Shown here piece after piece: positions 2,660 to 34,459 of a stretch of 64,000 nt of DNA; the first letter of the stretch is position 1, and each line of letters begins with the position of its first letter. Below the pieces are notes generated by a model. The model worked only from the letters and a program-made list of their open reading frames with translations. It was not told the DNA's origin and did not search any database. The DNA lies in the NCBI GenBank assembly GCA_951406725.2, contig OX597827.1, positions 70,308,001 through 70,372,000 on the forward strand, given 5' to 3'. Origin of the DNA: Octopus vulgaris. Lineage: Eukaryota. Made by a program: the position numbers and the translations under genes.

Positions 2660-2957
2660 CTTTCACAGGTTTGTTTTCTGAAAAGAGAAACTCATATTTA
2701 GTGGCCAATCATAGAAACTATCATCTATTATATTTTTATTCATATTAAATCACATTTTCATGAACAACAGTAGCAATGAGTGTAAGTTTCCAACTAGTCA
2801 ATTACTGGTTCACCAAACTGGAGAGGGTGAAAAAGATATAATCTGCATAACTCATAAAACCTCAAGTAATTTTCATTTGGAAACATGGATTTATCAGATA
2901 TCTCACACATATAAATCACCGAGACATACACACACAAACAGCTTCCATACAGTTTCT

Positions 2958-11143: not shown

Positions 11144-11490
11144 GCATTTATATTTTCTATAGAATAGCCGGAATTTCTTTAATAATAATTTTTTTTTAAA
11201 AACCCTCATTATTCCTCCCCCCCCCTTTTTTTTGACCATAAATCCAACATGGCGGACAGGATCTGAATCTGACTTAATAGAATCCGTCTAAAAGACTTAC
11301 CAAGTCATTCCTTCGTACGTCTGCTTCTTTGATGGAACCCGCCTCTGTCCTCGTCTTCCTAGAAACTACTAACCTACAATTTCCAACTTGGCATTAAAAC
11401 CGTCGCAACCTCAACCAACCACAAGTCCAGGAGGCCCCCGGGGGACCCAAACGGCTCTGCCCTTCCTACTTTACAAGACTAATCAATAAA
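11144..11490 (-). promoter_or_regulatory. Putative promoter and non-coding first exon of paralog A (exon 3' end 11301)
   Basis: Minus-strand donor TTG|GTAAGT at 11300, YY1-type CAACATGGCGG at 11245-11255, locally GC/CpG-rich. A near-identical copy lies at the equivalent position upstream of paralog B. The link to the coding exon is inferred. Confidence 0.65.
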
Positions 11491-11535
11491 TATATAAACA
11501 AAATAAATGAAAACTGTGTCATCTAACACATACAT

Positions 11536-11568
<33 letters not shown>

Positions 11569-12379
11569 CGTGTGTGTGTGTGTATAGATATGAATGTATG
11601 TGTATATGTGATTGTTTGTGTGTGTGACAGATTTATGTATGTTTATGTGTGGCTAGTTTGTGTATTTGTGTATGCATGCACACAAGAAAAGATGAAGGAG
11701 GAGGAAAACAAAAAACATACCCGGAGACGGCACACAGGTAAATATGTGAGTATAGCAGTTCAATAGTGAACTGGTGCAGTCACTGGTGAAAACATGTCAT
11801 AGAGTGTCTTGGGTTATTTTCCAGAATAAAGGGGACCAAGTGTCGCTGGCTTCGACGACACCGACAGACAGATTGAAAGGGAGTGTTTAAAAGAGCACTG
11901 ATATATAATGTTATCGATGTATATATATATGTATATACATACATAGGAAAATATATAAACATAAATGGCAACAGCGTGTGAGGAATTAATTAGCAAACAA
12001 CAGGTAGGTGACCCTTCCGATGAGAAAAGTTCACATTGAGCTTTGGATATAAATAAATAAATAAATAAGATTAATAATGTGGAGAAAAAAAAAGAGAGAG
12101 AGAGAGAGAGAGCAGTGTAAGTTTCGTCTCTCGCTCTCTTTGTTAGAAGCTTAATGTTAAGACCATTCATCGGTGTTTAACGAAAAGTAGTTTCCCCTGT
12201 CAAATATTTCCCCCTGGCAACTATTTCGTGTTCTTTGGAGTACAAGGCTGTATTCGTATATATATATATATATATATATATACAAACACACTCGAACGTA
12301 TGCTTGTGTGTGTGATGTGTATATGGGTGGGTGTGCGTGTATAATTTTAACGTCAGCATGTTTCACAGTAAATTTTATA

Positions 12380-12418
<39 letters not shown>

Positions 12419-12963
12419 TGCACACACACACATATATAGTTGAAATTTATAGAAGAACAAAAGACGAAGATAGGTGTATGAACACCAAGAAAGTGTATTA
12501 GTTTGACGCTCGGGAAAAAGGGAAAAGTCTTTTACATTTCGAGCCTACGCTCTTCAGTAGAAAAGAATAAGAGAAAGTAAACACAAAGAGAGAATGAAAA
12601 AAACTTGTAGAGTTCAGTGGTCCAGTATTGCAAAGATATAATATATATGCAAGGACTTGGGAACAGGGAGTGCAGCGGGTGCCTTTGCATCCCCTAAAAT
12701 TTTGTGAAGGCACAAAATTCAATATTGCACCCCCTACTTACCTTTGCTAGACTTAGAAAATAGTGTTTGAAAATTGATCTGTAAAAAGTTACTTGAAGTT
12801 AGGTTTCTTTACAAAATAAGAACAAATAGCTGAAATAAATAAGAAACCGATAGAATAAGTACTAGGCTTACAAAGAATAAGTCTTGGGGTTGATTTGCTT
12901 GACTAAAGGTACTGCTCCAGCATGGCCACAGTCAAATGACTGAAACAAGTAAAAGAGTATACA

Positions 12964-14662
12964 CACAGACATGACAGAAGCAAATAGAACCATTTTATGT
13001 TTATTTTAACCTGAAAAGTTTTATATTTTTTATTAATTGACATTTTTATGTTTCAGATTCTATATGTGACCATTTAATCATGCCACAAACAAAAGAAGCC
13101 TTGAAACTGTCTGAACTTCAAAGAGGCCATATCATAGGTCAATTTGAAGTGGACTTAGTCGTAATAAAATCACAGAAAACCTTGGTATCCCGCTTTCTAC
13201 AGTTAATAGAGTGACTGGGGAAATTCACCAAAGAGGGGAAGGAGTCCACATCACCTCATCCAAGTTGACCAGAGCCCTCTGACAGGACTCTTCACTATGG
13301 TTGTGAAACACGATCTATGAGGGTAGTCGATTAGCGAGGGCTGGAGGTGTTCAACAATGACTGTCTCCGCCGCATTGTTTGCTGCCGACGCATTGATCGG
13401 GTTCCTACAGCTGGTCTTCGTCGTCATCTGAGTCTCCGGCCCCTCCCTTCGGTGCTTCTACAACAGCGCTTAAGGTGGTTCGGTCATGCGGCTCAGTGTC
13501 CAGAGGGTGAGCTGATTCACGATGTCCTTCTCCCACCTTCACTTCCCAGCTGGCGCAAACGCACGGGCGGGTAGCTGAAGACCTGGGAAACGACGATAAA
13601 GGAGGACCTCTCTGAACTTTCAGATCTTCAGGTGGTCGGTCTGCGCAGATGGAACCGCGAATGGCTTGCTGTCTCCAGTGACCTCACTCAAGACTGTCGA
13701 GCGTGGGCCGCCATGGTTCGTGATGCCGTTAGGAACAGAGAAGAAGCTGGCTCAACCCACCCTGGGTGAATGCCGTCACAGGTACAAGTAAGTAAGTATA
13801 ACCTTCGTTGGAAGGCCTGATATAGCAGAACAAGTTGATGTCAGTCCCAGAACAGCTGTCAGGTATCTCCACAAACTTCGCTACTATAGTAGAGCAGCAA
13901 GAAGGAAGCTACTTCTACAATCAGTCAATATCAAGCAGAGAAAAGATTAGGCCAGTGAGATGATGGAGAGGCCACTTGCATCTTGGGACACTGTCTCTGA
14001 TGAATCCAGATTTACTGTATTTTCTCACAATAGTCAAGTGTGGGTTTGGAGACTCTGTAATCAATAATTTGAACATGAAAAGACTGCTGCCAACAATAAA
14101 ACATGGCAGCTGTTCGGTGATGGTCTGGGAAGCAATTTGGAGCAATGGTCTGTCAGAGCTGGTGGAGTGTGAGGGAAACATAAACTCAGATAAATATGCA
14201 TTCATATTGCAAAACGGACTCCTTCTAATCTTCTCTAGAAGAAGACTATTTATGGAAGATGGGGCTCCTTGTCACACAGCTAAAACGACCCAAGATTGGT
14301 TGGAAGAGAAGTGCATTAAAAAGCTTCCATAACCAAGCCAGTCACAAGATATGAACCCTATTGAACACTTCTGGGGCATAATGGACAAGACACTTTGTAA
14401 AAAGAACAAGAAAGCATCCTCAAAGCCAGATCTTTTGAGATTACTGCATGAAACTTGGCAAGAAATTCTTCAAGAGAATATTCGTCATCTGATCAGTAAC
14501 ATGCCTAATAGGGTCCTTGCATTCAAAAATGCAAAGGGGCATGTCTACTAAATATTAGATATTTACATTACAATAATTAATAAATAATTTGAATGTATAT
14601 TTTCAGATTTGAATGTATTTTAATGATTATAAGGGTGTTTATTTACTTCTATCATGTCTGTG
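12964..14662 (+). mobile_element. Tc1 (DD34E) transposon, non-functional, interrupted by an RTE LINE fragment
   Basis: Imperfect ~28-bp TIRs (CACAGACATGA[C/T]AGAAG...), TA at the right end, KHGSCSVMVW motif and EDGAPCH...MNPIEHFW with D-x34-E spacing across an in-frame stop. Confidence 0.88.
13293..13798 (+). mobile_element. 5'-truncated RTE-clade LINE (ORF C-terminus plus 3' tail)
   Basis: HYGCET...LRRI...RLRWFGH motifs, two in-frame stops and a CAAGTAAGTAAGTA tail. Confidence 0.85.
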
Positions 14663-14694
14663 TATATATAACAACAATATACTTACAATATAAC

Positions 14695-15062
14695 CCTTTC
14701 TACTCTAGGCACAAGGCCTGAAATTTGGGGGAAGGAGGCTAGTCAATTAGATCGACCCCAGTGCACAACTGGTACTTAATTTATCGACCCTGAAAGGATG
14801 AAAAGCAAAGTTGACCTCAGCAGAATTTGGACTCAGAACGTAATGACAGACGAAATACCTATTTCTTTACTACCCACAAGGGGCTAAACATAGAGGGGAC
14901 AAACAAGGACAGACATAGGTATTATGTCGATTAGATCGACTCCAGTGCATAACTGGTACTTAATTTATCGACCCCGAAAGGATGAAAGACAAAGTCGACC
15001 TCGGCGGAATTTCAACTCAGAACGTAGTGGCAGACGAAATACCACTAAGTATTTCACCCGGT
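14695..15062 (-). mobile_element. SINE family B dimer (two bodies with different tails)
   Basis: Central domain occurs twice (~14750-14855 and ~14930-15045). Confidence 0.75.
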
Positions 15063-15583
15063 GTAATATACTAACAATATAACAACATCAAAAACCATGG
15101 CCAATCCTCAATACTAGCACAATTGATGAACTATTACACTCCACAACCAACAACCCTTCATAGTTCAGCTATCCACTTCTTCATTTCCCTGAAGTACCAT
15201 AAGTGATGCATTATCCTCATTGTCATCGTGTTCCACTTCTACCAGCCTTACCACAACTAAACAATAGCAACAACAACAAAATCAGCATTGGAAGTCACTC
15301 TTCAATACGAGAACAATTGATGACTCGTTAAGCCCCACAATCAAGAGCTGTCATCATATTGGAGGCTTGAGTCTGTTATATCAAGTGAGAGCCTGTTCAG
15401 CACACATCGCTGTTTGAAGACCTGATTCCATACCACACTGACACAATGCTGTCTGACATGCTGTGCTGTATTGAATGTACATAAAATCTTGCACAATGAA
15501 AACACTTTGGACATCCTCTTGGAAAACTTCATTGCCAAAACAAGCGAGGAGAGAAAAAATGATTTGAAGCATTACTTATTTAC

Positions 15584-15912
15584 CTAAATTTTAACATAAT
15601 CCCCTTTGAAATAGTCACCTTGCACAGCAATACACAGGTCCCAGCATTTCTGCCTCTTTAGGAATCTGGTCTGGAATTTATTTTCCATAAGCGAGTTGAG
15701 GACTTTCTGTGATTCATCTTGGATCTCGACGATGGTGTCAAAAGGGCAACCTTTGAGCTGCATTTTCATTATGGGGGAAGAGATGAAATTTCACAGATGT
15801 TAAATCTGGTGAGTAGGGCAGATGTGGAAATGACACCGTGTTGCTTTTGGTGAGAAACTCACGAGTGAGGAGAGCTCTGTGATAGAATGCATTGTTGTTG
15901 TGAAGAATCCAA
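15584..15912 (-). mobile_element. Mariner transposase 3' fragment
   Basis: WILHNNNA...HLPYSPDL and MKMQLKG...CIAVQGDYF motifs, frameshifted. Confidence 0.8.
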
Positions 15913-15924
15913 TTTATTCACATA

Positions 15925-17702
15925 CATTTCCACCCAATTAGCACTACCCCTAGTAGCACTGCCCCCTTTCATGGCTTCCATCCCCTGAATCTGAGTCACC
16001 TTGAGATGCATGTTTGCCAAGTTTGTGCCAAAACTGCTTTCAACTGACAACACACCTGCCCATTCAGCACAGTTTATGCAGCAATTTTTGGCTAGGCACA
16101 GCATTCCCCAGGTCCGACATTCACCGTATTCCCCAGACTTGCCCCTTGCGACTTTTTCCTTTATCCAAAAATCAAATCCGGCTTGAAAGGAAGAAGATTT
16201 CAGGATATCAAGGAAATCAAAATGAATGCAACAAGGCAGCTGCTGATCATCCCAGAAAACGAGTTCCAGGAATTCTTCCATCAGTGGAAACAACACTGGA
16301 TTAAGTGTGTGGCTTCTGAAGGCGACTACTTTGAATAAACTAACTAATAAAGAAACTAACATATATATATTATATATCATTATTATATATTACTAGCAGT
16401 ATCGCCCGGCGTTGCTCGGGTTTGTAAGGGAAATAACTATATAAGCATTTTTAGAGAGTTACTTCCCTTATAGATGCCAATTCGGGCTTTCTTAGCCATT
16501 TCTGTTTTGGTGTCTTCAAGCCATGAAGTCGTTGTTCTAAAAGAACGCTGGTCTCCTTGACAACGCTTTACGATGTTGATTTCCTTACACTCCCTTCCCC
16601 ACAGCTTCACGAGGGAGGGAAGAAGGGGGAGAAGCAAACACAGGTGCAGGTGTGACCGTGGACGCCAACTCCGCTGCCATCGACACACGAAAAATTATGC
16701 ATTAAAATGGAATAAAAAATGATGTTAAATTATTTTTAAAATCGTAGACTCATCGTAGACGCGCGCTAATACTCAGACGGGCTCGATATGAATCACGACT
16801 ATAAGATACCCGAATTTGGTTAAACTGCACCGCAAAATGTGGGAGTAGTTAGGAATCTAAATCGAAGGGGACAGACACTCACACAACTACAGTTTTATAT
16901 ATATAGATTTTCCTTCAAATAGAAGTTGTGTGTTGATCACTCTTGCTTTGGCAGCTTTCAATTATTCCACTGCTCGAAGAAATTGGCAGACAGGGCTTAG
17001 AGGTCTTCCTGCACAAGTTGACTGAGCAGAAAGTTGGAACAATAGTCAGCCACCTTCACATACGAGGTGGTATCAAAACGTTCCCAAACTAGTTCAGATG
17101 GCAGCACACAGTTGTGTGTGCAATGAGAACTAGCAGTGACCTTCACGAGGCAGTGTGCCCCGTGATATTGCTGTGTTTACTTCACAAGCTGTGAAATTTG
17201 TGGTTTTGCGATCACCTGTGATTTTTGTCATGGACAGGAAGTTGGAACAAAGAACCAATCTGTAATTATGCTACAGAGACATTGAACATGCTTCAGCAAG
17301 CTTATAGCAACAAGGCAATGGGTCGTACACAATGTTTTGAGTGGCATGGGTACACGACAGAGCCACAGTTCAATCAAGAGGATACTCATCATGTTTCTTT
17401 GACATCTGCAGTATTGTGCATTAAGAGTTCACCCCCCAGGGCCAAATCATCAATCGAGAGTTCTACAGTAACAGTTTGAAGCATTTGAGGGAGGACATTC
17501 AGCTAAAGTGACCAGATAAAGCACGAGAAGGTATTTATGAGTTATTTAATGTTTATGCTTAGCATCAAAGGGGTCAGTAGGCAGTAGGTGATCAGTTTGG
17601 TCATGGTAGCAACAGGGGTTACCTCAAAGTGACTCAGATTCAGGAGATGTAAGCCATGAAGGGGGCAGTGCTACTAGGGGTAGTGCTAACTGGGTGGAGA
17701 TG
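15925..17702. mobile_element. Element bounded by ~80-bp inverted repeats with TA flanks, containing mariner fragments and a Helitron
   Basis: 15925-16004 is the reverse complement of 17623-17702 (~90% by eye); TA|CA...TG|TA ends. Mariner DNTPAH...HSPYSPDL fragment at ~16001-16335 and a mariner 5' fragment at ~17064-17520. Confidence 0.6.
16393..16907 (-). mobile_element. Non-autonomous Helitron
   Basis: 5'-TC start, 3' GC-rich hairpin (CCCGAGCAACGCCGGG) before CTAG-3', inserted between A and T with no TSD. Confidence 0.85.
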
Positions 17703-18957
17703 TATTATTGTTGAGAGACCTTAAAACACGTAAGGACCTCAGGAAACATCCCTTTTCGTGTATCTAAGAGCATCGCAAGATGATGTATGGAAGTTAGTGC
17801 CCCAGCATGGCTGCAGCCCAAAAGACTGAAACATGTAAAAGATACAAGGAAAGTATGTGTGTGTATGTATATACATATGTATACATGCGCACACACAAAT
17901 AGATGTGTGTTTATGCATGTGAGTATACGTGAGTGCATGTGTATTTGTGAGCTTGTAATCCAGCCAGGAGAAGCCACAAGTAATTTGGATATAAAATGAA
18001 ATTTATGTAATCTTAGATGTGGTTTGCAGTCCTACCACACACATAGACACACACATACATAGACACACATACATGCACACACACATAGACACACACGCAC
18101 ATAGACACACACATACATAGACACAAACAGAGAGGGAGAGAGAGTGGGGGTGGTGCTTAGCCACAAACACACACACAGATACACTAAGGCAGGCACAGAC
18201 ACACACACAATGCATATTCTTCCTTCCTCTGAAAAATATAATCTAATGTCCTAGATATTTTCTGGGATGTGCAATATTCATCCCTGCTCCCTGGAGCATT
18301 AGCAACATAGATATATATTACAGATTTGTGCATAGACACACACACACCGTGTGTGTATGAATACACATATACATATGAATACACATATACATATGTGAGT
18401 GTATGAATACACATACACAAACACATACACACACAGATATTTATGTATCTCTCTGTCTCTGTCTGTCTCTCCCTCTCTCTCTCTATATATATATACACAC
18501 AAATAAATGTATACATAAATGCATATGTACATATATATGTATGCATGCACACACACACTCATACACTTGTGTGTTTGTATGTGAATTGTATCTGGGTCAT
18601 GGACTTGGTTTGTTGAGAACTTCCTGTCACACTACACCAGTTCCTACACACACATACACACACACAAACATGCACACAAACACGTACACACACACACACA
18701 CGCATTATCAATTTACAAAATCAACCACTTGGATACAATTCACTATAAATACAATGTTAGGCCTTCAGACATTACTAAAATACTTAGATCATTTTTCCCC
18801 AAGTAGACAATTCCTCACACACACACCCACCCACCCACACACACACACACACACACAGATGCTCGCTCACACACCAGGGTGTTGCAAGATGTTGCTAAGT
18901 GTTCTTTGAAAATGATAAAATTATATTTTAAAAATGTGAAAAATATTTATATTTGTA

Positions 18958-19718
18958 GGTGCAGGCGAGGCTGTGTGGTAAGAAACTTGTTCCCAACCAC
19001 ATGGTTCCAGGTTCAGTCCCATTGCATGGCATCGGTGGGCAAGTGTCTTCTACCATAGCCTCGGACTGACCAGAAGCTTTGTGAGTAGATTTGGTAGGTG
19101 GAAACTGAAGGAAGCCCATTGTACATATATATATATATATTTATTGAAATCAAAATCGAATTCGCTCAAAAATCAATGGAAATTGTAGTTGTGATACCAG
19201 TGCTGGTGGCACGTAAAAGAACCATCCGAACGTGGCCATTGCCAGCGCCGCCCCGACTGGCCTCCATGCCGGTGCCACGTAAAAAGCACCAACCAATCGT
19301 GGTCGATGCCAGCTTCGCCTGGCACGTAAAAAGCACCCACTACACTCACGGAGTGGTTGGCATTAGGAAGGGCATCCAGCTGTAGAAACTCTACCAGATC
19401 AGACTGGGCCTGGTGCAGCCTCCTGGCTTCCCAGACCCCAGTTGAACTGTCCAACCCATGCCAGCATGGAAAGCGGACGTAAAACGATGATGATGATGAT
19501 GATCTGTCTGGGTCTTTCTGTGTTTGTCCCCCATCATCACTTGACAACCGGTGTTGGTGTGTTTACTTCCCTTTAACTTAGTGGTTCAGCAAAAGAGACT
19601 GATAGAATAAGTACTAGGCTTAAAAAATAAGTCCTGGGGTTGATTCGTTCAACTAAAACTCTTCATGGAAGTGTTCTAGCATGGTCGCAGTCAAATGACT
19701 GAAACAAATAAAAGAATA
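18958..19718 (+). mobile_element. SINE family A copy with a family D element nested at ~19150-19503
   Basis: Family A head (GGCTGTGTGGTAAG, GGTTCAGTCCC) and tail lie on either side of a family D body ending (GAT)n. Confidence 0.75.
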
Positions 19719-21489
19719 AAATATTTTCCTTTGGTCTAATTATTTTTATATGTTGTTAAGTTTAACATAAATCTACAGATGCCATACTGCGACCCCTCTT
19801 CAGTGTTGTATTCTGAGATTATTGGATGTTTCGTGCCTAACAATAGACACCCTCATCCCGAGAACCCGACTTACCTGAGTTGATCTGAGCTTGTTTCCTA
19901 AAATATATAAATACCTAAAAAAAAATTTCCCAACCACATGGTTCCGGGTTCAGTCTGACCTTGGGCAAGTGTCTATATAGCCCTGGGTAAACCAAAGCCT
20001 TGTAAGTGGATTTGGTAGACGGAAACTGAAAGAAGCCTGTCATATATATTTATGTGTGTGTGTTTATCCCCCATCTGTGGCATTGCTTGACAACTGATGT
20101 TGGTGTGTTTACGTCCCTGTAACTTAGCAGTTTGGCAAAAGACACCAATAGAATAAGAACTAGGCTTACAAAGAACAAGTCCTGGGGTCAGTTTCTTCAA
20201 CTAAAACCCTTTAAGGTGGTGCTCCAGCATGGCCACAATCAAATGATAGAAACAAGTAAAAGAATAAAAGAAAGAAGAACATTTAATAGATGAAGGCTTG
20301 ACTGAGTGGTAACAAGTTCGTTTCCCAACCACATGGTTCAGGGTTCAGTTCCACTGCGTTGCATCTTGGGTTTCTACAACTGGATGCCCTTCCTAATGCC
20401 AAAGCTACCAGATAATGTATGATTAATTCCAAACAAGGTGAATAACTAAACATTACACTTGATAGAGTAATTTGAAAGCCGAAGGGTTAAAGTAGATTTA
20501 GTTGATATTTCTAGCAGGCCAAGTGGCTATGTAGAAGCTTTTTTATCGGTTTGAGCAAGACAATTTCAACCCCGGTTGTAGCCAGTTCACTTCTCTGTCT
20601 CCACAAATACCAATGAGAAATGTATGAATGCCACTGCTTCCATATTTACTGTTCTCTGATAAAATAAGCTGGAAAATGAGTACCAAGGACAACTGGGAGT
20701 TAAATTTTGTGATAGACTGGTATCCCATTCAAGGGGTTAGTACTGTACTCTTGGTTACTCTGGCTTAATGAACCATTTTACTACAAGGTTCAGACATTAT
20801 TGTGGTGTGGTGGTTTGTATATGGCCCTGAGAGCTATTCCACCGGAGCTCATGCTCCTGGCAAAGCCTTCCATGCTGGACAGGCCAAACAATAGGGGTCA
20901 GACTAATATGGATAACTTCATTCCTGAGATGAAAATGGGTTTGTGTAGGACCAACACCCCTACCTAGAATAAAATAAAGTCACAAAGGCACCAGTGACGT
21001 ACTTACCAGTCTGTGTCTCATCGGCACTATGGACCCCTTTTCTACCTTACCCAGGATCTAAACTATTACAAACTGTCACACTCCACACTCTAAGAATCCA
21101 TTACAGCTGATCTTAGTAATTGGTTTCACATAAGATATTAGGTAACTGGGTGGTTATCTAATACACATGCTCTTCAGTGATGGCATTCTTTCCATTCCTG
21201 AAAACATGTGTTAGATAACCACTCTTAATATCCAGTGGAAAACTGGCAGATAAGATCAGCTGTAATGCATCTATGGCACTGTATACTTTGATAAATATAT
21301 GATGTATGCTTCAGAGAGAAGCATCAGTTAAGTACAAGCATAGCAGCAAGCAACCATATAAATCAGAAGGGAGCAAGAAATTATGCAATGAACTACATTG
21401 GCTAACAGTTGTTTCTGCTGTAGGATACAATGCACTCATAGTTAGGTGCATGTGTATCACCACCTTGTAGCTTTGTCAGAACTCCAGAT

Positions 21490-21700
21490 ATATGTATGTA
21501 TGTATGGGTATGTGTGTGTATGTATGTATGTGTTTGTATGTATGCCTGTATGTGTGTCTGTCTGTATTTATGTATGTATGTCTATCTGTATGTGTGTGTG
21601 TATGTATGTATGTGTGTCTGTCTGTATTTATGTATGTATGTCTGTATGTATGTGTGTGTGTGCATGTACGTACGTATGTATGTATGTATGTATGCATGTG
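21490..21700. repeat. (TATG/TG)n compound microsatellite
   Basis: Direct reading; includes a duplicated ~60-bp sub-unit. Confidence 0.9.
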
Positions 21701-21704
21701 AGTA

Positions 21705-22075
21705 TGTCATTATTCAGTTTTATTTCAAGATTTCTTGCCAATAGAGAAAGGAGTCAGTTTCTAACCTAGAGGCTCCTTCACTGGAATTTCAACATCAACA
21801 ACAGGGTGTTTTTGTTTGTTTGTATGTATGTATACGTGCAGATTTATATGTTTTGTTCTATGCATATTCTTCTCATGCATATACTAGCATATCAAGACAA
21901 GCTCATATATGATAAACTTCTGGAAAGTCTCACAGAATTTTACAATTCCAGAGATGGCGTGGATCTTTATTCTTTGAATCAGCTTTCTCCTTTCTAGTTT
22001 TGAGAAGCATAATTTCACAAGATTGGTACTTAGGCAGATTGTTACATATCCCAATGCCCCAATAATTACAGGTGT
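21705..22075 (-). mobile_element. 3' fragment of an RLE-type non-LTR retrotransposon (R4/Dong-like)
   Basis: PVIIGALGYV...LIQRIKIHAISGIVKFCETF C-terminal motif; the 3' end runs into (CATA)n. Confidence 0.6.
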
Positions 22076-22320
22076 GTGTGTGTGTATAAAGCACTGTTGT
22101 ATAACACTGGAAGTTAATTTGAACAACAAGGAATTTTCACGATAATAACAGAGACATAACAAAAATGCATTGGTGTAGAGAGATTTATGACTTTTATGAA
22201 ATTTGTTTCATTCTATGTTCCAGTCTGTACCAATTACGGTAGGATGGAGGGCTCAGATAGTGTTTCACTAAATAACATGATACGATAGGGAACAAAACAT
22301 CTGTATGTAGGGACTGTCGA

Positions 22321-23241
22321 CTATGAATAGTACATCTGTAATAAAGTGGTGTCTTTAATCATTGGGGTATCTATATCATGGGAGAATGAGGTACTCTGTT
22401 CAGAAAAGGTGGATTTAAAATCAAAGGGGTACTCTTCTTTTTTCTCCTCTTCTTTTACCTCGCTTTTATCTTTTTCTAGTTTGTTGCCGTCTAATCCAGG
22501 GGGAGCTGTAGCTCGCCTCATGTTAATGTTCGACAGAATGTGGTCAGTGTGTATTTTAGTATGGCGTAACAAATTACAGTTAGTGGAGAAAGATTTACCA
22601 CAGATATCACATATGTAGGGCCTCTCGGTGGTGTGCGTCCACTCATGACGTCGGAGGTTGGTACTGGTGGAGAAGGATTTCAGACAGACAGAACACTGAT
22701 ATGGTCTCTCGTTCGAATGAGTCTGAATGTGACGCTTCAATTGGAAATTGTCTGGGAAGGATTTGTCGCACATGTCACACATGAACGGTTTCTGATCTGT
22801 ATGAGTCCAAATATGATGTTTCAGGTGTGTGCTGGTGGAGAAACTCTTTTCGCAGATGACACAACGAAAAGGTTTCTCCGATGTGTGGATTCGTAAATGA
22901 CGTTGTAGATGAGAGCGATCAGAGAACATCTTCTGACAGATTGAACAGGTGAATGGCTTCACGCCTGTGTGAATGCGTGTGTGGATCTTTAGTGAAGATG
23001 AAGTTGTGAAACCAATACCACAAAGGTCACACTTGAATGGGCGTTCCCCAGTGTGTGTCCGAATATGAGTTTTTAAGTTCCAAGATGTTGTGAAAGCTTG
23101 TTTGCAGTGATCACACTGGTAGGGTTTCTCCCCCGTATGTGTCCTGGTATGGATACGCAGATCTGAACTCCCTGTAAAACACTTGTTGCACACTTCACAT
23201 TTGTATCGCTTTTCAACAACATATTTCTCAACAAAATACAT
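22321..23241 (-). CDS. C2H2 zinc-finger protein, paralog B (306 aa, 8 fingers matching fingers 3-10 of paralog A)
   Basis: Eight C2H2 units, the last four identical in protein to paralog A. Candidate acceptor CAG at 23253-23251. The true N-terminus is uncertain. Confidence 0.92.
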   Translation of the reverse strand: MYFVEKYVVEKRYKCEVCNKCFTGSSDLRIHTRTHTGEKPYQCDHCKQAFTTSWNLKTHIRTHTGERPFKCDLCGIGFTTSSSLKIHTRIHTGVKPFTCSICQKMFSDRSHLQRHLRIHTSEKPFRCVICEKSFSTSTHLKHHIWTHTDQKPFMCDMCDKSFPDNFQLKRHIQTHSNERPYQCSVCLKSFSTSTNLRRHEWTHTTERPYICDICGKSFSTNCNLLRHTKIHTDHILSNINMRRATAPPGLDGNKLEKDKSEVKEEEKKEEYPFDFKSTFSEQSTSFSHDIDTPMIKDTTLLQMYYS

Positions 23242-24363
23242 TTTTACAACCTGATTTTAAAAATGTCAGAAAAAAAAACAAAAAAAAAAAACTGTAAGTG
23301 TGTGATTTTTGAATAGGTGTTACACTCAGGCAAGTTTTAGAAGTGTGTTTTAGAAAGCAAGATTTAACAAATATTACTATGATTGGTCTTAACCATTTTC
23401 TTTCTTTTTTTTTTTTATATCTATTTGATATGATGCCACAATTTGTTTCTTAAACAAAGGAATAGTCTGGAAATACACCACAATAGTGGAATGCGAAGGT
23501 ATTGAACCTGGTCTGCTTACTTGTGTTATTCCTCCAATATTCAAATCATCATCGTAACAATGGTCATGAAAATAATATCCAAAGTTTACCCTGATTTTCC
23601 AAATACTGCTGACAGAAAGGTCAGCAGCATATATATATATATATATATATGTGTGTGAGAATCTAAGGATTGTTACCAACCAGTCACCTACAACAACACT
23701 GGTTTAAGCAATCAAGATTTCCTGTTCTTTATCTCCACCTTCTCATTGAGTGGGTGAGTGTTTTGATGTTTGGCAATGAGTGTTTTGAAAGATTTACTAA
23801 TATAAATCACAATTACAGATCTGTGATGACAATGAAAAATAAGGATTATGTTGATGATGGAGATACTGATGACGATAATGATGATAACTGATAATTTGAA
23901 AATGAAATTTAATGCATTGTCTTTTGTTGTTTTTATCTTCTTGATTAATCTGGTTGTTTATTTTTAATTTTCTATTTTTATTTCTCAGCAGGAAATTATA
24001 TTTATGTCAGCATGAATCACAGGTCAAACCTAACTTCTTCAAGTCGGCATCACTTACGTACATCAATAACCAATAAAATATATATCGTTGCTAACATTTT
24101 CTGGTGGGGAGAATATGTTGTGATATTTTTGGGGTTACAAGAGTTTCACCCCCATTCCCAGGTAAGTGTGAGTGAAAAATAGTTGATAGCTGGTAACAAA
24201 TATCTCAAGATGGAGGAAGCTGGACGAGTAAAAATGAACTACTGGAAGAGGTTAGAACAAGAGCTGAGGGTAGTAAGTAAGTGAATGTGACTAAATAACC
24301 ATAGAATGCACTGATATGACAAGAGATGATGTGTTGCTGGGGACAAAGTGGGGAAGAAGATCA

Positions 24364-24654
24364 TCAGGGGATACACAACTCAAAGGAAATGACTGCGGTA
24401 AACTCTAGCAAGAAGAGTTTAAAGTAACAGCAAGACAAAACACTTATGGAAGCGAATATATTCTTATTGCAATAAACACAGGTAAAAGGTGGAAATTTGT
24501 TGATGATTCTTAGGCTCTGTAAATGTAATGATTTTCTGACTGATGTAAGAGTTGTTGTTGCTGGCTTTTGGAGGAACTTGGTGTGGAAGACATTCTGAAG
24601 AGAGACTGTAGCCGTGTCAGAGGTATGGAGGTGTGAATCTTCAGTGGAGCTTTT
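24364..24654 (-). pseudogene. Possible decayed N-terminal exon of paralog B with a degenerate zinc-finger remnant
   Basis: Acceptor ttcag|AAAA resembles that of paralog A; MSSTPSS resembles MSSLTTS; in another frame PFTCVYCNKNIF resembles PLTCTVCKKSF but lacks the His ligands. Confidence 0.4.
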
Positions 24655-24713
24655 CTGAAATGAGAAACAGATATTTATTGATCTGTCACAGAAACTGTCA
24701 CTTTGCACGAATT

Positions 24714-25152
24714 ATATAATAACTGGACACATTGAAACTCCGACGTCTGGCAGACACCCATAAAATTATCAACCATCGCACAAACAATAACACTGAGCAC
24801 CTCTTCAAACTCCACCCATCTAACACCCGTGGACATATTTACAAAGTAAGAAAACAGCACAGCTCCCATGACTTTAGGAAACATTTTTTCACGCTGAGAG
24901 TTGGTGAAGCGTGGAACAAACTGCCGGCATCGGTTGTTAGTTGTCGGAGCACTGCATCCTTCAAGACTTCCATGCTTCCTGAGATTCGCCAACACTACAC
25001 TTGATTTTCTCCCTCCATACACACACAAGCATGTTCACTTTCCAGACATTTCTACATTACTGCATGTACTTTATATGCACTTTCTGACAAGTTGTGGTGC
25101 ACCTGAGCACTGTATACAATAATTTCATTATTATTATTATTATTATTATTAT
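24714..25152 (+). mobile_element. CR1/L2-type LINE 3' fragment with (ATT)n tail
   Basis: TRGHIYK...FFTLRVGEAWNKLP motif followed by a 3' UTR and ATT repeats. Confidence 0.82.
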
Positions 25153-26439
25153 AACTATTCACGACACCGGTGATTGTTTAATCACTGTTTTCCTACACAT
25201 CCGTGGCAAACAAATTTCATGCAAGCATGCATTTGGCTGTGAGTACATGCTATTGATAAGGTACAATGACGGAGAAATACATCTGGTGTTCTCACTAACT
25301 GCTAGTGGGATGGTTTTTAAACAGGCAGCAAGCTGGCAGAATCATTAGCACACTGGACGAAATGCTTACTGGTATTTCATCCATCTGGGTTCAAACTCTG
25401 CTGAAGCTGACTAACAATATAATCTAATCTTGGCAAGTATGGGTGACAACTTCAGGTGTGTTTCAGTGTTATTAAATCTCTTCAGTTAAGTATAGCTTTC
25501 ACAAACACTTGTCAGATTCGTGATAAGAAAATAAATATATTGATGTACATGAGTAGACATCAAAAATAATGAGATTGACTGAGAGGAAAATTTATCCAGG
25601 GTCTTCAACTGTATGAAAAAACAACAGTCAAGTTGGGCAAATATCTTCTACTATAGCCTCAGGCTGACCAAAGCTTTGTGAGTGGATTTGGTAGACAGAA
25701 ACTGAAAGAAGCCCGTCATATATATGTATATGTTTGTGTATCTCTGTTTGTCCCCCCAACATTGCTTGACAACCGATGCTGGTGTGTTGTCCCTGTAGCC
25801 TCGCAGTTGCACAAAAGGCTTACAAAGAATAAGTCCGGGGGTCGATTTGCTTGACTAAAGGCGGTGCTCCACCATGGCCACAGTCAAATGACTGAAACAA
25901 GTAAAAGAGAAAGAGAAAGAGTATAAAATTTTGATGGAAATTTGAACTTAGATCACTTTGAGCCTTTATTATTTCAACTGGTTAAGTCCATCCTAAATAT
26001 TCTACCTGTTTTGTGTTCAAACCAGTCATATCAGGACTCCTACAATTATTCTACAATGTCATTTATAGAATGTAAACAATCACCTCATCAAAATCTTGAA
26101 GCTACAAAATAATGTATTATCAATTCAAAACAACGTGAATAAGCATTACATGTCTTTTCTACTCTAGGCACAAGGACCAACATTTTTGGGAAGTGGGGGG
26201 CAGTTGATTAGATTGACCCCAGTATGCAACTGGTACTTAATTTATCAATCCCGAAAGGATGAAAGGCAAAGTCAACCTTCATGGAATTTGAACTCCGAAC
26301 ATAAAGACAAACGAAATACCGCTAAGCATTTCGCCTGGTGTGCTAACATTTCTGGCCCAAATATTCTATTGAGTTCTGCTCAAATCTGCCAGATTAGGCC
26401 TCTTACACCTACCTTACAATGTCATTTGAAAAATTAACA

Positions 26440-26777
26440 ATTGCCTGACTGGCACTTGTGCCGGTGGCACGTGAACAAAACATTTGAGCGAGGTCGTTGC
26501 CAGTGCTGCTGGACTGACTCCTGTGCAGGTGGCATGTAAAAAACACCTTTTTGAGCATAGCCATTGCCAGTACCACCAGACTGGCCCTCGTGCAGGTGGC
26601 ATATAAAAGCACCCACTACACTCTTGGAGTGGTTGGCATTAGGAAGGGCATCCAGCCGTAGAAACTCTGCTAGATCAAGATTGGAGCCTGGCGCGGCCAT
26701 CTGGTTCACCAGTCCTCAGTCAAATCGTCCAACCCATGCTAGCATGGAAAATGGACGTTAAAGGATGATGATGATGA
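26440..26777 (+). mobile_element. Family D repeat (RTE-like tail)
   Basis: Same body and tail as 4660-5042, in opposite orientation. Confidence 0.75.
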
Positions 26778-27784
26778 CCATCAAAATCTCAAAGATACGA
26801 GATGATGCATGATTAATTCAAAACAATGTCAATAAATAAGCATTACAGTTGACAGAGAAATGTAAAGGATTAAAACAGGGAATTTGTATCACAGAACTAT
26901 GGAAGATCTCAGGTGGGTTGGTGTCAAAAGGGTTAAGAGAATAAATGGATAATCCACTACAGGGATTTGCTGGGGGATAAATGGGCTCTAATTTACAACA
27001 GTCTTACTGAAAGAAAAAAAAAATCCCAAATATTTCTTCTCCATACATGTGAGGTCATTTCAAAGCCCCTAGAGGAAATAAATAAAGGAAAGAAGGAGTG
27101 GTAAGTTATTTTTTTTTAAATACTGACTCCTTGGTATTTTGAATGACATCCGACTACATAATAACCATTGCTCCAGATACAAAAGCTCTGAGACATATAA
27201 TGTTACCGAAATGTTGCCGCTACGTCGTGACAGATGTGGCTGGTGACTAGGCTGAGAGGCTGAACATTGCCTAAGCTTCAGACAAATAAAAACAAATTAG
27301 AAAAAATAAAAATAAAGCTATCATAAATTTTATTTTTATTAACTTCTTTTTGAAACATGAAATTAAATACCAAAACCTTTACATTTAAAAAACAATTTTC
27401 TTTTTGTTTTTAAGTCGTTTCATATTTAAATAAAGGTATCAAATATCAGATTTATTGTTGGGGTTATATCAGATTTATTTTTATTTTTTTGTTTTAGTCA
27501 ATGGACTGCTGCCGAGCTGGGGCACTGCCTTGAAGGGGTTAGCTGAACAAATCAACCCCAGCACTTATTTTTAAGTCTGGTACTTCTTCTGTTGATCTCT
27601 TTTGGTGGCCTGCTAAGTTACAAGGATGTAAACAAATCAACACTGGTTGTTCAAATGGTGGACACACACACACACAGGCCCACTATATAGCACCTTGGGG
27701 AAGTGTCTTCTATTATAAGCCCTAATCAACCAAAGCCTTGTGAGTGAATGTAATAAACTGAAAGAAGTCCATCATTTCTTCATA

Positions 27785-28180
27785 GGTGCAGGAGTGGCTG
27801 TGTGGTAAGTAGCTTGCTTACAAACCACATGGTTCCGGGTTCAGTCCCACTGCGTGGCACCTTGGGCAAAAGTCTTCTACTATAGCCTCGGGCCGACCAA
27901 AGCCTTGTGAGTGAATTTGGTAGACGGAAACTGAAAGAAGCCCGTCGTATATATATATATATATATATGTGTGTGTACATACTTGTGTGTCTGTGTTTGT
28001 TCCCCCAGCATCGATTGACAACCGATGCTGGTGTGTTTACCTAGCGGTTCGGCAAAAGAGACCGAAAGAATAAGTACTAGCCTTACAGAGAATAAGTCCT
28101 AGGGTCGATTTGCTCGACTAAGGGCGGTGCTCCAGCATGGCCGCAGTAAAATGACTGAAACAAGTAAAAGAGTAAAAGAA
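27785..28180 (+). mobile_element. tRNA-derived SINE family A, full length
   Basis: A/B-box-like head, internal (TA)/(TG) tract and AAAAGAGT tail repeats. More than 10 copies in the window. Confidence 0.85.
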
Positions 28181-29070
28181 TAGTTAGAGAGGGGCCTTAT
28201 GGCCAGAGAATAGTTCTGGAGCAACAAAATATGTCTGGAATAGCTAGAGTTTACTTCCAAAATACAGCTTGTTAATAAAATAACTGGTTTCTTCGTTAAG
28301 CATAAGGTCATATCGTTGAAAATAGGTGAGGAGAATGAGATTTCATGGCATTTGTGTCTTTCTCAAGGAAAACTAGAGCCATAATTATTGAACTGGCTTT
28401 GACCGATACTCGTAACTGAGTCGTGAAATTGGTCCCGCCAGGATCTAACATCATTGTAACTGAATAAACAAGAGAACAGCCACACGTTGTTAAAAACCTA
28501 ACAATATCATTTCAGTGGACAGAAAAAAAAAAGAAAAAAAAAAATTAAGTATTAAAGGGAGGCAACCCCTGCATGTCTACAAGCTGTTAGCTTTTCCTAA
28601 AAATCTGTCATGGATTTGAATTAGCGTTGGTCAAATAGAAGCACCCTTATTCTAGAAATAAAGCAAAAAGAACGTGGATATGTTGCATTCTTTTCCAAAG
28701 GTCATAAGTGATGGGATTTAATTCTGTGACTGGAAACTGCAACATGATCTATGATTGCTCACAGCTTATACTGCTTAAAAATTTTTTAAATATCAGACCA
28801 TATAGTGGAGAATACAGCGTTGGTTTTGAGGACCATAAGCCCATAACAGATATAAATACAGAGTTTATTTAGCATAAATATATACATTTGTATATTAAAT
28901 ATTGTTGGATTATAATTCACGTAAAAACGTTCTAACGTGGTCGCTGGACCTGCTAGAAATAGTATCGAAATCTCTCTCAAATCACATCGTTGTCTAAACC
29001 CGTTTTCAGCCCAAAGAATTTTCATCGGTTTCTCCTAAACACCCCTGTTTGTTTTCAGACTTTTGGTTAA

Positions 29071-29189
29071 CCCTTCTTTCGTACATTCTGAGTAATATAA
29101 AGCTTTCCTTTCATAAGTCCCAAGTTTCTCAGGCAGTTGAAAAAAAGTTTGGAATGTGCATCACATGTATACATCGGACAGGCAAAGGG
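29071..29189. mobile_element. Small piggyBac-like MITE
   Basis: TTAA|CCCTT...AAGGG|TTAA. The TIR match is short. Confidence 0.45.
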
Positions 29190-30007
29190 TTAAGGGACTG
29201 GACACAGTGTATATAATATAGTCCTCAACATACTCTTTACTCTCTTTTGATTGCGGCCATGCTGGAGCACCGCCTTTAGTCGAGCAAATCGACCCCAGGA
29301 CTTATTCTTTGTAAGCCAAGTATTTATTCTATCGGGTCTTTTGCCGAACCGCTAAGTTACGGGGACGTAGACACACCAGCATCGGTTGTCAAGCAACGCT
29401 AGGAGGACAAACACAGACGCACAAACATATACACACACACACACATACATATGTATATATACATATATACAACAGGCTTCTTTCAGAGTCGGCAGAGAAA
29501 GAGTTGGTTACGATTATGATGATGATGGTATCCTTTCTTCACCATCAAACCTTGTAAAACAATTTTAGGATCTTAGATTTCGTCCAACTTCTTGCATCGA
29601 GGCATCGATTGGCTAAAATTACGTATTTCTAAATGCTTGCAACTTTTCAGAACTACATTTTCCCTGAAAATAATCTGATGAAAATTTGAAAAACTTCAGC
29701 TGCTCGGAAGAAATTTAACAAGATCCGTAGGGCCGAGGGAAAGTAACTTTGTGGAACATTCTACATGCTAAATACATATACGGCAGGGTATCACATACGT
29801 AATAGTGGTCCCTCAGCCTATTAGAAATAGCAGCCAAATCCCCATCAAATCCTGTTCTCCTGCCTAAAGTAAAAGAATACACACTGGACAATGTGGACAA
29901 GGTGGTCACTAATGGAGTGGCTTTGATCATAAGTTAGTAGAAGACTGACCTGGTGTTTTGTAACTTAACGAAACTGAGTTTAATGTTTCTTTTTCTTGCA
30001 TTCCCTG

Positions 30008-30401
30008 TTTTACTTGTTTCAGTCATTTGACTGTGGCCATGCTGGAGCACCGCCTTTAGTCGAGCAAATCGACCTAAGGACTTATTCTTTGTAAGCCAAG
30101 TACTTATTCTATCAGTCTCTTTTGCCGAACCGCTAAGTTACGGGGACGTAAACACACCAGCATCGGTTGTCAAGCGATGTTGGGGGCAGGGGGGGGGGAC
30201 AAACACAGACACAAACATATACACACACATACATACATATATATGACGGGCTTCTTTCAGTTTCCGTCTACCAAATCCACTCACAATGCTTTGGTCGGCC
30301 CGAGGCTGTAGTAGAAGACACATGCCCAAGGTGTCATGCAGTGGGACTGAACCTGGAACATGTGGTTCGTAAGCAAGCTACTTACCACACAGCCACTCCT
30401 G
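30008..30401 (-). mobile_element. SINE family A, near full length
   Basis: Reverse complement of 27785-28180. Confidence 0.85.
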
Positions 30402-30559
30402 AATATTAATTAACAAGTCCAGGTAATAAACTCCAACAATCAATAGCAATCAATTAAACACAGCTGGTTCCGTGTTACAGTAAAATAGATATTTTCGTTT
30501 GTCTGACGGTTTTTCATTCAGAGTAAGGCTGTCTACTATTAATTACAAGAGCATAACTA

Positions 30560-31558
30560 CAGAAACGTGCCACCCCGTAGACCTTTGCTTCTACATAACT
30601 TTCTGTATGTTTTCTGTTTTTTGAACGAAAGTTTCTACAAATATATTTCAAATGGTGTAGATTATGATTTTATCGGAATCTGCAGTGAAAATACATTTTT
30701 TTCCTAAATTTTTTTTATAGGAATTTAATGTCCAAAGAATCGAAGAGGAGATGAATATTTCACGCATCTCGACTTTGTTTTCTCATAACTTTTAGAAAAA
30801 TGCATACAGTCGCAGGAGTGGCTGTGTGGTAAGTAGCTTGCTTACCAACCACATGGTTCCAGGTTCAGTCCCACTGCGTGGCACCTTGGGCAAGTGTCTT
30901 CTACAATAACCACGGGCTGACCAAAGCCTTGTGAGTGGATTTGGTAGACGGAAACTGAAAGAAGCCCCTCGTATATATGTGTATATATATATATGTATGT
31001 GTGTGTATATGTTTGTCTCCCACATCGCTTGACAACCGATGCTGGTGTGTTTACATCCCCGTAGCTTAGCGGTTTGGCAAAAGAGACCGACAGAATAAGT
31101 ACTAGGCTTACAAAGAATAAGTCCTGGGGTCGATTTGCTCGATCGACTAAAGGCGGTGCTCCAGCATGGCCACAGTCAAATACATGACTGAAACAAGTAA
31201 AAGAGTAAAGAGTATAGTTTTCCTCCTCCACGACTTTCTTCCTATCATTTACTGTAAATTTAACAAAATTTCATTTTTACTTTTCAGGTTTACATGTTTG
31301 AAATAGTAATATTTACGTAATCCGCATCTTCGAAAACGTATTTTTGCAAAATGTCATTTAAAAACATGTATTTTAGAGAGAGTAATGAGGAAACTAGGTC
31401 GGCAAGGAGGAAAATAAAATGATCCGAAACGTTTCTAAAATTATAACTCATATAATCATAATCTACATGCTCGAAAATGCATCTATGAAAAGTTTCATTA
31501 AAAAAAATACGCGTTTTTCAGAAAACTGACGGAAGAAAATCGGTGAGGCACTAAACTG
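30560..31558. mobile_element. Old Tc1/mariner-type MITE with imperfect ~130-bp TIRs, carrying a SINE A insertion (30808-31214, +)
   Basis: TA|CAG...CTG|TA ends; TGTAGATTATGATT and flanking sequence mirrored at both ends. Confidence 0.6.
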
Positions 31559-33036
31559 TACTTGTGCCGGCTTAGTTTCTCTGACATTTGCTACGCCGAG
31601 TGGCTTGCATAAATTACATTGACATTTGCTTAACCCAAGTCAACCTTCATTTAGCAGTACTGTGATGGGAATGATTCCAATCGTGACTACCCAGTCTTAT
31701 TTCCAGATATAATGCAAACTTATACTACATTAGCGAAATTATACACTTTTATTTAAAAACAATTGGGCGTGATTTGGGATGAACTTGGCTGTTATTTCTA
31801 ACAGGCCGAAGGACCACATAGAAACTGTCCCTTCCTCTTGTATTTCAAATACGTGGAAGATACATTTTCAAAATTTTATTTTGAATGTGTAAGAAATGAC
31901 GTGTCAAATTCTTTATTAGTAGTAGGTCAGCTACAATCAAGCAGATCTACAATAAAGGCATGCCAGCCATGACCACTCCATTTTGGTGGGGTTGTGTTGC
32001 AGGACTATATTGTCCACTGTATCCTGTAATATATTAAGACAGTAGGATGTAGTGTTAGGCTGATTTAGCTGCCATTTTTAGCATGTCGTACGACCGCGTA
32101 GGGGATCTGTCGTTGTGAAGAATACATCTTAGATTTTAGTTTTGTCTTCTCCAATTTACATTTGGCAGAGGCTGTGTGGCATCTCAGAATTATACCTTCT
32201 ATATTCCCCCATGACCTGAAGGAAAAATAATTTCTTACGATACAGGTCTTTAATTACAATTAAAGAAAATCTTGGAGAAGAGAACAGATATTATTACCGG
32301 GAATTTGATAGACGAAATCCTACAGCTAGTGTTTGGAGACGAGACAGTGGGCGCCAGTCCAGATTCGCCAGACACTGTTGAGAAGTCTTAGTCTTCTAAT
32401 AAATGTGTCAATTTCGCAAATTCTTAATCATCAGAAACAACTTTCATTGATAATGAGAATAACAAGAATTCGATTATAATAGAAGTGACATGATTAATTG
32501 TTGGTTAACCCCGGATCAGCTCTGGTCATGGAGATATAGCTGGATCAAAAGACAGTCCAGTCGTAACCACCCCGATCATAATAACAAATGTGTTCAGTTA
32601 TTTTAAGGTGATAAGATGCATCATGAAGGAAATTTGGGGTGTTACTTTTAGCTGGTCAAACGACTATCTTGTCCCAGGTTCCGTCTTTCTTTTACCAATG
32701 CACACTACCCTACCCAAAAAGCTGGAAATAATTTTTCGGGACACATACTTCAATTTAATTAATAAGTTCGTTTTCAAAAATTTATTTTAGTCTTTGGAGA
32801 GAATTTTTTCCCACTTCATCTCGTTCGTTTTTGCGGCATGCAAAGATGTTATAAAGAAAAACAAAACCAAGGGTCGGAGCAAGCTGATGGAAATTAGAGA
32901 AATAAAAGTACTTAATTGTCCCGAGGGGTTCCCGCACTCTAAAATGACATTATTTCGCCGCGCTAATTACTGAAATTATGAAAAGGACTTGCGTTACAAA
33001 GAACGATTTTAGAAACTATAATTGTAGTATCATCTT

Positions 33037-33384
33037 GCATTTATATTTTCTAAAGAATAGCCGGAATTTCTTTAATAATAATTTTTTTTTTTAAAACCCT
33101 CATTATTTCTCCCCCCCCCTTTTTTTTGACCATAAATCCAACATGGCGGACAGGATCTGAATCTGACTTAATAGAATCCGTACTAAAAGACTTACCAAGT
33201 CATTCCTTCGTACGTCTGCTTCTTTGATGGAACCCGCCTCTGTCCTCGTCTTCCTAGAAACTACTAACCTACAATTTCCAACTTGGCATTAAAACCGTCG
33301 CAACCTCAACCAACCACAAGTCCAGGAGGCCCCCGGGGGACCCAAACGGCTCTGCCCTTCCTACTTATAACACTAATCAATAAA
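33037..33384 (-). promoter_or_regulatory. Putative promoter and non-coding first exon of paralog B (exon 3' end 33196)
   Basis: Near-identical to 11144-11490. Donor GTAAGT at 33195, YY1-type motif at 33139-33149. Confidence 0.65.
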
Positions 33385-34065
33385 CGAGAAACGCGTGTCC
33401 GTGTATGTAGAACGAGTGTGGTGGTTGTTAGATGTAGGCATGGATTTTTGGCTTTATGCGCGTGTGTGTGTGTGTGTGTGTAAGTAAATATTTGCATGAA
33501 TTTATTGGTGGTGCTTTTTTGTATGTTCGCGTGTCTGCATAACATGCACACAAGACCATGAAGAAGAGAACGTACCCGGAGACGAGACACAAAGTAAAAT
33601 GTGGATATAGCAGTTCATCTAGGAAACCAAGAGCGAACCGACGAGGGTGTCACGGAGGGAAACTTGCCATTACTGTCTTTGGTTAATTTCCAAGAATCTC
33701 GACCAAATGTCATTATTTAAAACAACCAAACAAAAACAAAAACAGACACTGGTGTAACTGATCTACGTAAACATTGATATATATATATATAGATAGATAT
33801 ATCAGTGGTGTGTGTTTGTGTATTTCAACCGGAATGGCGAGGTGGGGAAGTGGAATAGTTTCCACCCCGAAAAGTTCTCTTTCAAGCTTTGAAATAAAAT
33901 TAATAATAAACATTAGGATGTTTTTCCCCTCAACTCCCTTTGTCGGAACATTTTGGCGGTGTTCACCGAGAACTTGTTTCCATCGTCAAAAATATCCACC
34001 AACTCATACGTGTGATTTATCAAGTAAAACATTTATCAAGTCCCCGCCTCATGATAAAACTGGGT

Positions 34066-34290
34066 GGTACTACTTAAGAAGAGTGGTCCCGGTGCGCGCA
34101 CTCGCGTACTCGGGCATCGAAGCTAGCTAGGGCAAACCTTCGGTATAGGTACCGGTACTTATACCGTAAGATCGCCATTTATTTTGTGTTATATTTACTT
34201 TGCTAGGTAGTCATTGTAGGATCGACTAGCTAGCGCGGATGCGCGACTACGCGAGTGCGCGCACCGGGACCACTCTTCTTAAGTAGTACC
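34066..34290. mobile_element. CpG-rich MITE with perfect 43-bp TIRs
   Basis: GGTACTACTTAAGAAGAGTGGTCCCGGTGCGCGCACTCGCGTA occurs at both ends, inverted. A half copy lies at 47564-47666. No TSD visible. Confidence 0.8.
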
Positions 34291-34459
34291 AATACGTTCC
34301 GTAACTGAAGGCAACTTGTTAAAAAGTAAGCTAGTATATGCTTAACAATCGAACAGTGAATAAACGAATAAATGGACCCATATCTATAAGTGTGACAAAA
34401 CTTTTTTTGTATTCAATAGATACAATAGCGTTGATAAATATCAGAATTTTTCTTACATA

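Follow-up and report, generated by a model that had tools for sequence, protein, structure and literature searches.

We report here on a 64,000-nucleotide stretch of the Octopus vulgaris genome (NCBI GenBank assembly GCA_951406725.2, contig OX597827.1, positions 70,308,001 to 70,372,000 of the forward strand; hereafter the window), in which two minus-strand C2H2 zinc-finger (ZF) genes, here termed A and B, share an almost identical non-coding block at their predicted 5' ends. The block is probably a gene-conversion tract: judging from the DNA sequence, A and B arose by an old whole-gene tandem duplication, and their predicted first exon was in all likelihood made near-identical recently by interlocus gene conversion. 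Self-BLAST of the window aligns 11144-11490 (copy A) with 33037-33384 (copy B) at 97.7% identity over 349 columns, with five mismatches and three gap openings (E 8e-167), and within this alignment a core of 238 bp in copy A (11234-11471, paired with 33128-33366) has a single 1-bp indel, 13 nt into the predicted intron, as its sole difference. The near-perfect alignment described in an earlier note on this DNA is thereby confirmed. The tract measures 184 bp as its longest exact run (starting at 11288/33183), 238 bp with one indel and 347 bp overall.

The identity profile along the pair is step-like, with abrupt edges. Divergence is 0.43% in the core (95% interval 0.01-2.4%) and takes intermediate values at the edges of the block (4.4% and 12%), as expected from nested tracts of different ages, against a background of 26-29%. 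This background consists of non-coding remnants at the acceptor (26%), in an upstream patch (11679-11840 versus 33547-33711; 27%) and in the 3' untranslated region (UTR; 29%). After repeat masking, which leaves 6401 of 8466 and 6431 of 9786 bases, the introns have in common just the last 46 nt before the acceptor, so that the patchy similarity beyond the block and the lack of alignable unique intron sequence reported earlier both hold. Collinear homologous remnants flank the block on either side, and its homologous position between them therefore indicates replacement rather than insertion. The core divergence is at least 14-fold, nominally 78-fold, smaller than the corrected non-coding distance, and one difference in 233 sites has a binomial probability of 3e-29 at 26% divergence and of 9e-5 at 5%. 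Across the pair as a whole, three levels of divergence can be distinguished, namely 26-29% in the other non-coding remnants, ~12% at the silent sites of a tract in the coding exon and 0.4% in the core.

A search of the whole genome (2.8 Gb) returned two copies of the block, both inside the window, and not hundreds of dispersed ones; in a sensitivity test, the same search missed a 73%-identical paralogous patch, so that old diverged copies could escape it. The window is full of dispersed repeats, and together with this limited sensitivity they lend some support to the arrival in both genes of a young mobile element or of 350 bp inserted recently. Such an origin is extremely improbable given the two genomic matches, the collinear homologous position of the block, the lack of a self-inverted match for it in the self-comparison of the window, and its absence from 400 kb taken from two real ZNF clusters (200 kb each) and from 100 kb on either side of the pair.

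The two genes contain C2H2 open reading frames (ORFs) at 1436-2662 (ten fingers) and 22321-23256 (eight fingers), and are each other's only close paralog (89% over 691 bp), other matches being short with E values of 2e-8 or weaker. No further C2H2 ORF lies within 100 kb either side. The pair is hence an isolated tandem duplicate and not a cluster, contrary to the previous description of clustered C2H2 genes, and the suggestion that the block is an expression module shared by such genes fares no better, with only two copies in the genome and none in the 400 kb of ZNF clusters (the genome search being insensitive near 73% identity). The proportion of differing silent sites (pS) is ~0.54 in the first four shared fingers (synonymous distance, dS, ~0.9) and 0.74 in the tail (per-finger counts summed), which makes the duplication an old one. 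Differences amount to 40% in the coding tail; N-termini and tails differ between the two proteins, and the four C-terminal fingers are identical. Gene B no longer has A's N-terminus and two foremost fingers (minus strand, 23251-24654): past the ancestral acceptor of B, 1.4 kb shows no alignment to A, 23900-24660 occurs once in the genome, and a new candidate acceptor is present at 23250, with an ATG at 23241.

The coding exon bears a signature of its own. Among degenerate codons specifying the same residue in both genes, silent changes affect 7 of 107 inside 1981-1649 versus 35 of 96 outside, in fourfold and sixfold codons (3/45 versus 18/41) as well as in twofold and threefold codons (4/62 versus 13/48). 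None of 2000 permutations reached the observed value of a statistic that scans every segment and so corrects for boundary choice. The nonsynonymous distance (dN) in the last four fingers is 0. The adjoining finger 4 has only two amino-acid changes and yet a pS of 0.61, with 0.07-0.16 in neighbouring fingers, a combination that protein constraint does not explain; we infer that conversion, and not such constraint, produced the silent mosaic. The pair has most likely exchanged DNA before, which would make conversion an economical cause for the 5' block too.

The block itself is predicted, from its donor, upstream ORFs (uORFs) and CpG retention, to be the non-coding first exon and the start of the intron in both genes. 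On the minus strand, ~190 nt ending in TTG directly before GTAAGT would be followed by 157 nt of predicted intron; the G of the donor is at 11300 in copy A and 33195 in copy B, and CCGCCATGTT stands 46 nt past it (11254/33148). This word matches the YY1 consensus CCGCCATnTT quoted in PMC10760456, and YY1 motifs are described as over-represented just downstream of human start sites (PMC8384218). The donor, the YY1-type motif, the palindrome and the two upstream ATGs previously listed are all present, although the motif belongs inside the predicted intron and not upstream. Splicing of the exon to the acceptor at 2677 or 23250 would place two short uORFs (6 aa; 2 or 4 aa) before the main ORF, which stays intact, and splicing to the acceptor at 24654 yields no long ORF. 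A coding role for the 5' exon was ruled out, as no ATG is in frame with either main ORF. The observed/expected CpG ratio around both copies is ~0.7-1.3 per 500 bp, the regional median being 0.41 and the 95th percentile 1.02.

An RNA element, also put forward earlier as the cause of identity, finds no support in the block: there are no Rfam matches at gathering score (of 20 weak ones, 19 fall on the flanking microsatellite and one at the edge, E 0.12), and folding is no better than that of shuffles (z -0.08 and +0.83), giving no sign of structured RNA. Support for an R-loop from G-skew was not counted, the minus-strand value of the block (+0.31) being reached by 13% of 748 background windows. 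G-skew changes sign at the block edge, partly owing to the microsatellites, which are copy-specific and lie 35-80 bp beyond the upstream edge. Just upstream of both copies, plus-strand donor-like sites occur at 11738 and 11746 (11738-11752) and at 33480, and together with the skew they may mark a divergent transcript. Far upstream of both copies, 20779-20969 and 36241-36430 form a collinear patch, 63% similar, that may be an ancestral distal element or a low-copy repeat.

Purifying selection of an extreme kind could by itself have kept both copies of a regulatory element since the duplication. Ultraconserved elements are at least 200 bp long and identical between orthologs of distant species; here, the exact run between paralogs is 184 bp. 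That a donor, a YY1-type motif, uORFs and CpG-retaining DNA, all of them features with a predicted function, coincide with the block speaks for this explanation, as does the finding that a donor followed by a YY1-type motif occurs 14 times in the genome, two of them in these copies, versus five in the reversed control; the dN of 0 in the last four fingers likewise places the pair under strong constraint. Nevertheless, the acceptor, 3' UTR and upstream patch of the same pair, which are also constrained, have diverged by 26-29%, the identity of the block extends over homopolymer runs, the block has neither RNA structure nor an Rfam family, and the same pair carries an independent conversion signature. 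Moreover, the excess identity covers weakly constrained sites, namely the silent sites of the coding tract and, as weaker evidence, in the 5' block only low-complexity intron DNA, which is still near-identical (4.4% differences over 90 bp).

Control regions comprised 200 kb from each of two ZNF clusters, and first exons were compared in one of them (C28). There, 12 matches span the shared donor region; one was dropped for lack of a donor, and the remaining 11 gave 55 pairs. Where pre-finger identity is 85% or lower (48 pairs), predicted first exons have a median identity of 75.7% and a maximum of 92.9%, with two pairs reaching 90%, and among all 55 a single pair, a young duplicate, reaches 95%. 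On the same donor window, the A/B pair (C14) stands at 99.6%, versus 72% at its acceptor; unrelated DNA scores 57% with the aligner used. This comparison says that ZNF first-exon function alone would not hold sequence at 99%. With older ZNF paralogs near 76% in their predicted first exons, constraint alone is therefore decidedly unlikely, and ultraconservation as sole cause, one of the two options first raised, is disfavored. Short islands of 95-97% identity in C28 looked similar at first; those inspected belong to young duplications or consist of repeats, inverted-repeat elements among them. Two further observations concern this cluster: a ~430-bp inverted-repeat element with ~7 copies (87-97%), found only here among the three regions compared (G000:C28:5.40-5.60 Mb, L067-L086), and discordant first-exon and coding similarity among its ZNF paralogs (e.g. 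70.6% versus 97.3%), suggesting first-exon shuffling.

The almost exact identity of the core could also have been created by assembly or polishing, with reads of one copy overwriting the other. This is very unlikely for a short block with unique flanks on both sides, in which differences persist and rise towards both edges. Mis-mapping of reads would presumably need copies that were already near-identical, and the coding tract, which differs at silent sites only, is not a polishing product.

Tandem order on the same strand raises another alternative, a single transcription unit in which either of the identical exons can serve as first exon and be spliced to one or the other finger exon, as the intact main ORFs after joining to 2677 or 23250 would allow. 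Any GT donor is able to join any downstream acceptor, so that donor identity is unnecessary for such splicing, and the upstream gene B has AATAAA signals of its own at 21971 and 21724; the earlier proposal that the identical donor enables cross-gene splicing is unsupported on both grounds. Alternative usage would, in addition, describe how the exons are used and not why the copies are identical, and cephalopod protocadherins are described as not using variable first exons (PMC9068888). Taken together, these points make a single transcription unit very improbable as an explanation. The exons are identical from the donor to 11471/33366, with three differences upstream of that point, and junction reads could therefore not detect cross-gene splicing.

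Old duplication followed by recent gene conversion thus remains the favored explanation, supported by the step profile, the silent-site mosaic, the collinear remnants and the C28 control, as well as by the CpG-retaining DNA in which both copies lie. Under this mechanism, a break in one copy would be mended with the second, directly oriented copy as template, 21.9 kb away. Through purifying selection on the first exon, this island may have stayed similar enough to pair while its flanks drifted apart, and every conversion event would reset identity and leave the island eligible for the next. Microsatellites and diverged intron sequence may act as barriers that halt extension of the tract. As a likely outcome, 5' leader, uORFs, donor and YY1-type site are common to both genes, and the DNA upstream is not. 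Conversion is reported to be favored above ~80% identity and with a perfect match of ~200 bp, and the minimal efficient segment in yeast is given as ~200 bp (PMC3924818), with which the length of the core (238 bp) is in keeping. Constraint would have held the first-exon island above the ~80% level as the neighboring DNA dropped under it. Both the identical predicted leader and the four identical C-terminal fingers have apparently been kept by copying.

Several points weigh against this explanation. The comparison is of two copies within one genome. The exon, start site and junctions are predictions, and the coding tract is a separate, older event that proves little about the 5' cassette. There is no clear GC rise of the kind biased conversion predicts, block GC being 0.41-0.42 versus 0.40 in the window; G+C at third codon positions is slightly higher (0.55/0.53 versus 0.49/0.44), on only ~110 codons each. 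In the control, first exons in C28 were themselves inferred, one of the 12 donor-spanning matches was dropped, first-exon identity shows no correlation with pre-finger identity (Spearman 0.10, p 0.48) and the window pair was assessed with a different comparator. No orthologous proteins came to light: unrelated zinc fingers dominated the whole-protein search, with top matches at most 50% identical, and tail-only searches gave no orthologue of near or longer length. Exact protein look-up found none of four ZF start variants; the ESM Atlas contains protein A, and the clusters returned are generic C2H2 only.

In extent, the tract agrees almost exactly with the promoter-proximal transcribed DNA, running from the predicted start to ~150 nt inside the intron, and the promoter upstream is left untouched. 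Hotspots are said to sit at promoter-like DNA in many eukaryotes (PMC11703093). A more far-reaching proposal, which we consider unlikely, is that the tract is renewed repeatedly in every octopus lineage by cephalopod recombination breaks aimed at transcription start regions. A literature search for mollusc recombination hotspots found nothing, and an SSXRD search for PRDM9 gave no matches, uninformatively, as its controls likewise gave no signal. If breaks are start-targeted, the first exons of old paralogs would be self-renewing islands of identity that show, as natural reporters, where hotspots lie in a mollusc, and there might also be selection for matched expression of two factors sharing four identical fingers; recurrence across lineages, if found, would hint at where octopus recombination starts. 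The finding alone alters no general view. It does caution against taking ultraconservation for granted where paralogs are near-identical in non-coding DNA, and in this pair neither expression nor junctions of the first exon can be attributed to one gene with short reads.

Features of the ZF gene pair in the window (strand and positions as in the 64,000-nucleotide stretch)
Feature	Position	Strand	Remarks
Copy A of homogenized block	11144..11490	-	predicted non-coding first exon (~11490-11301) of ZF gene A, with 157 nt at the start of its intron; from donor and CpG profile
Copy B of homogenized block	33037..33384	-	equivalent position relative to ZF gene B
Youngest core, copy A	11234..11471	-	one 1-bp indel versus copy B; 184-bp exact run
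Youngest core, copy B	33128..33366	-	counterpart of 11234-11471
Predicted splice donor GTAAGT	11295..11300 (copy B 33190-33195)	-	read directly from sequence
YY1-type motif CCGCCATGTT	11245..11254 (copy B 33139-33148)	-	46 nt inside predicted intron; consensus CCGCCATnTT (PMC10760456)
Palindrome	11435-11444		in block of copy A
Copy-specific microsatellite	11526..11569	.	just past upstream edge; a different GT array occupies 33462-33481 in copy B
Unconverted upstream remnant	11679..11840 (versus 33547-33711)	.	27% diverged; copy A has donor-like sites on the plus strand at 11738 and 11746
ZF gene A coding exon	1436..2677	-	acceptor 2677, ORF 2659-1436, 407 aa, 10 C2H2 fingers
ZF gene B coding exon	22321..23250	-	candidate acceptor 23250, ORF 23241-22321, 306 aa, 8 C2H2 fingers
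Ancestral acceptor of gene B (24654)	24651..24737	-	homologous to 2677 of A, 26% diverged, no long ORF after it
Second, older putative conversion tract	1649..1981 (B: 22549-22881)	-	last four fingers; 7 differences in 333 bp, all silent
3' UTR remnant	1179..1342 (versus 22080-22251)	-	29% diverged

The neighborhood of the pair contains further elements. An IK/RED splicing-factor gene on the plus strand (38294-40363) consists of a single uninterrupted ORF of 689 aa with Pfam RED_N and RED_C domains, and its protein is 100% identical to that of Octopus sinensis and 98% identical to that of O. bimaculoides (rounded). IK has many introns in other animals, and a retro-origin is possible. The block is not needed as a bidirectional promoter for this gene, a role that was considered, given the CpG-rich 5' region and YY1-like word that IK itself possesses. 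A SNAP-25-family ORF (L019:2360-3016, plus strand), uninterrupted over 219 codons and ~90 kb from IK, is a second apparently intronless gene of housekeeping type. Converging on ZF gene A, a 468-codon ORF without Pfam match (L012:6035-7438, plus strand) ends 2.6 kb before the window. A MITE-like (miniature inverted-repeat transposable element) inverted repeat at 34065-34291, with 66-nt arms that are 92% complementary, lies ~680 bp upstream of copy B and has a partial relative at 47564-47667, and 35110-35294 and 36026-36210 form a 185-bp inverted pair with 95% identity, of low copy number in the 664 kb examined.

The closest known parallel is provided by the mammalian BEX/WEX/GASP genes, linked paralogs with a single coding exon in which, as described by Winter and Ponting (2005, PMC1274310), the 5' UTR and upstream DNA were homogenized by conversion and the coding DNA diverged; separate coding conversion events are reported there, and recurrent conversion is proposed to keep the 5' UTR eligible. 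The octopus genes are likewise linked single-coding-exon paralogs, probably homogenized independently at the 5' end and with a separate putative coding event. Unlike the BEX/WEX/GASP case, which involves over 20 genes, shows raised G+C and was traced with multi-species trees, the octopus case is one mollusc pair in one genome with no clear rise in G+C; its tract is shorter and set in surroundings diverged by 26-29%, and the transcribed 5' UTR is here a prediction. In primate SIGLEC11/SIGLEC16, a tract of ~2 kb including upstream DNA, 5' untranslated DNA and coding exons is 97-99% identical (PMC5701461). These too are neighboring paralogs with a 5' tract, and a microsatellite is described at the boundary of their similar region, but their surroundings are 88-93% identical, whereas the octopus 5' tract is non-coding, ~350 bp long and set apart from the coding tract. 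TPRX1/TPRX2 (PMC8208926) resemble the octopus pair in being transcription-factor paralogs with conversion concentrated in the DNA-binding part, in fragments of 9-492 bp; unlike in the octopus pair, their conversion is shown by trees across many mammals and concerns coding sequence. Within cephalopods, gene conversion has been suggested in tandem clusters of protocadherins (PMC9068888) and of reflectin and tyrosinase genes (PMC9635652), the same process in the same animal group, but concerning gene bodies. A literature search that excluded supplements found no published first-exon conversion tract in an octopus C2H2 pair. By analogy with these systems, the octopus block would work like a 5' UTR conversion tract, a known process, and would offer a clean invertebrate example of concerted evolution of a 5' leader.

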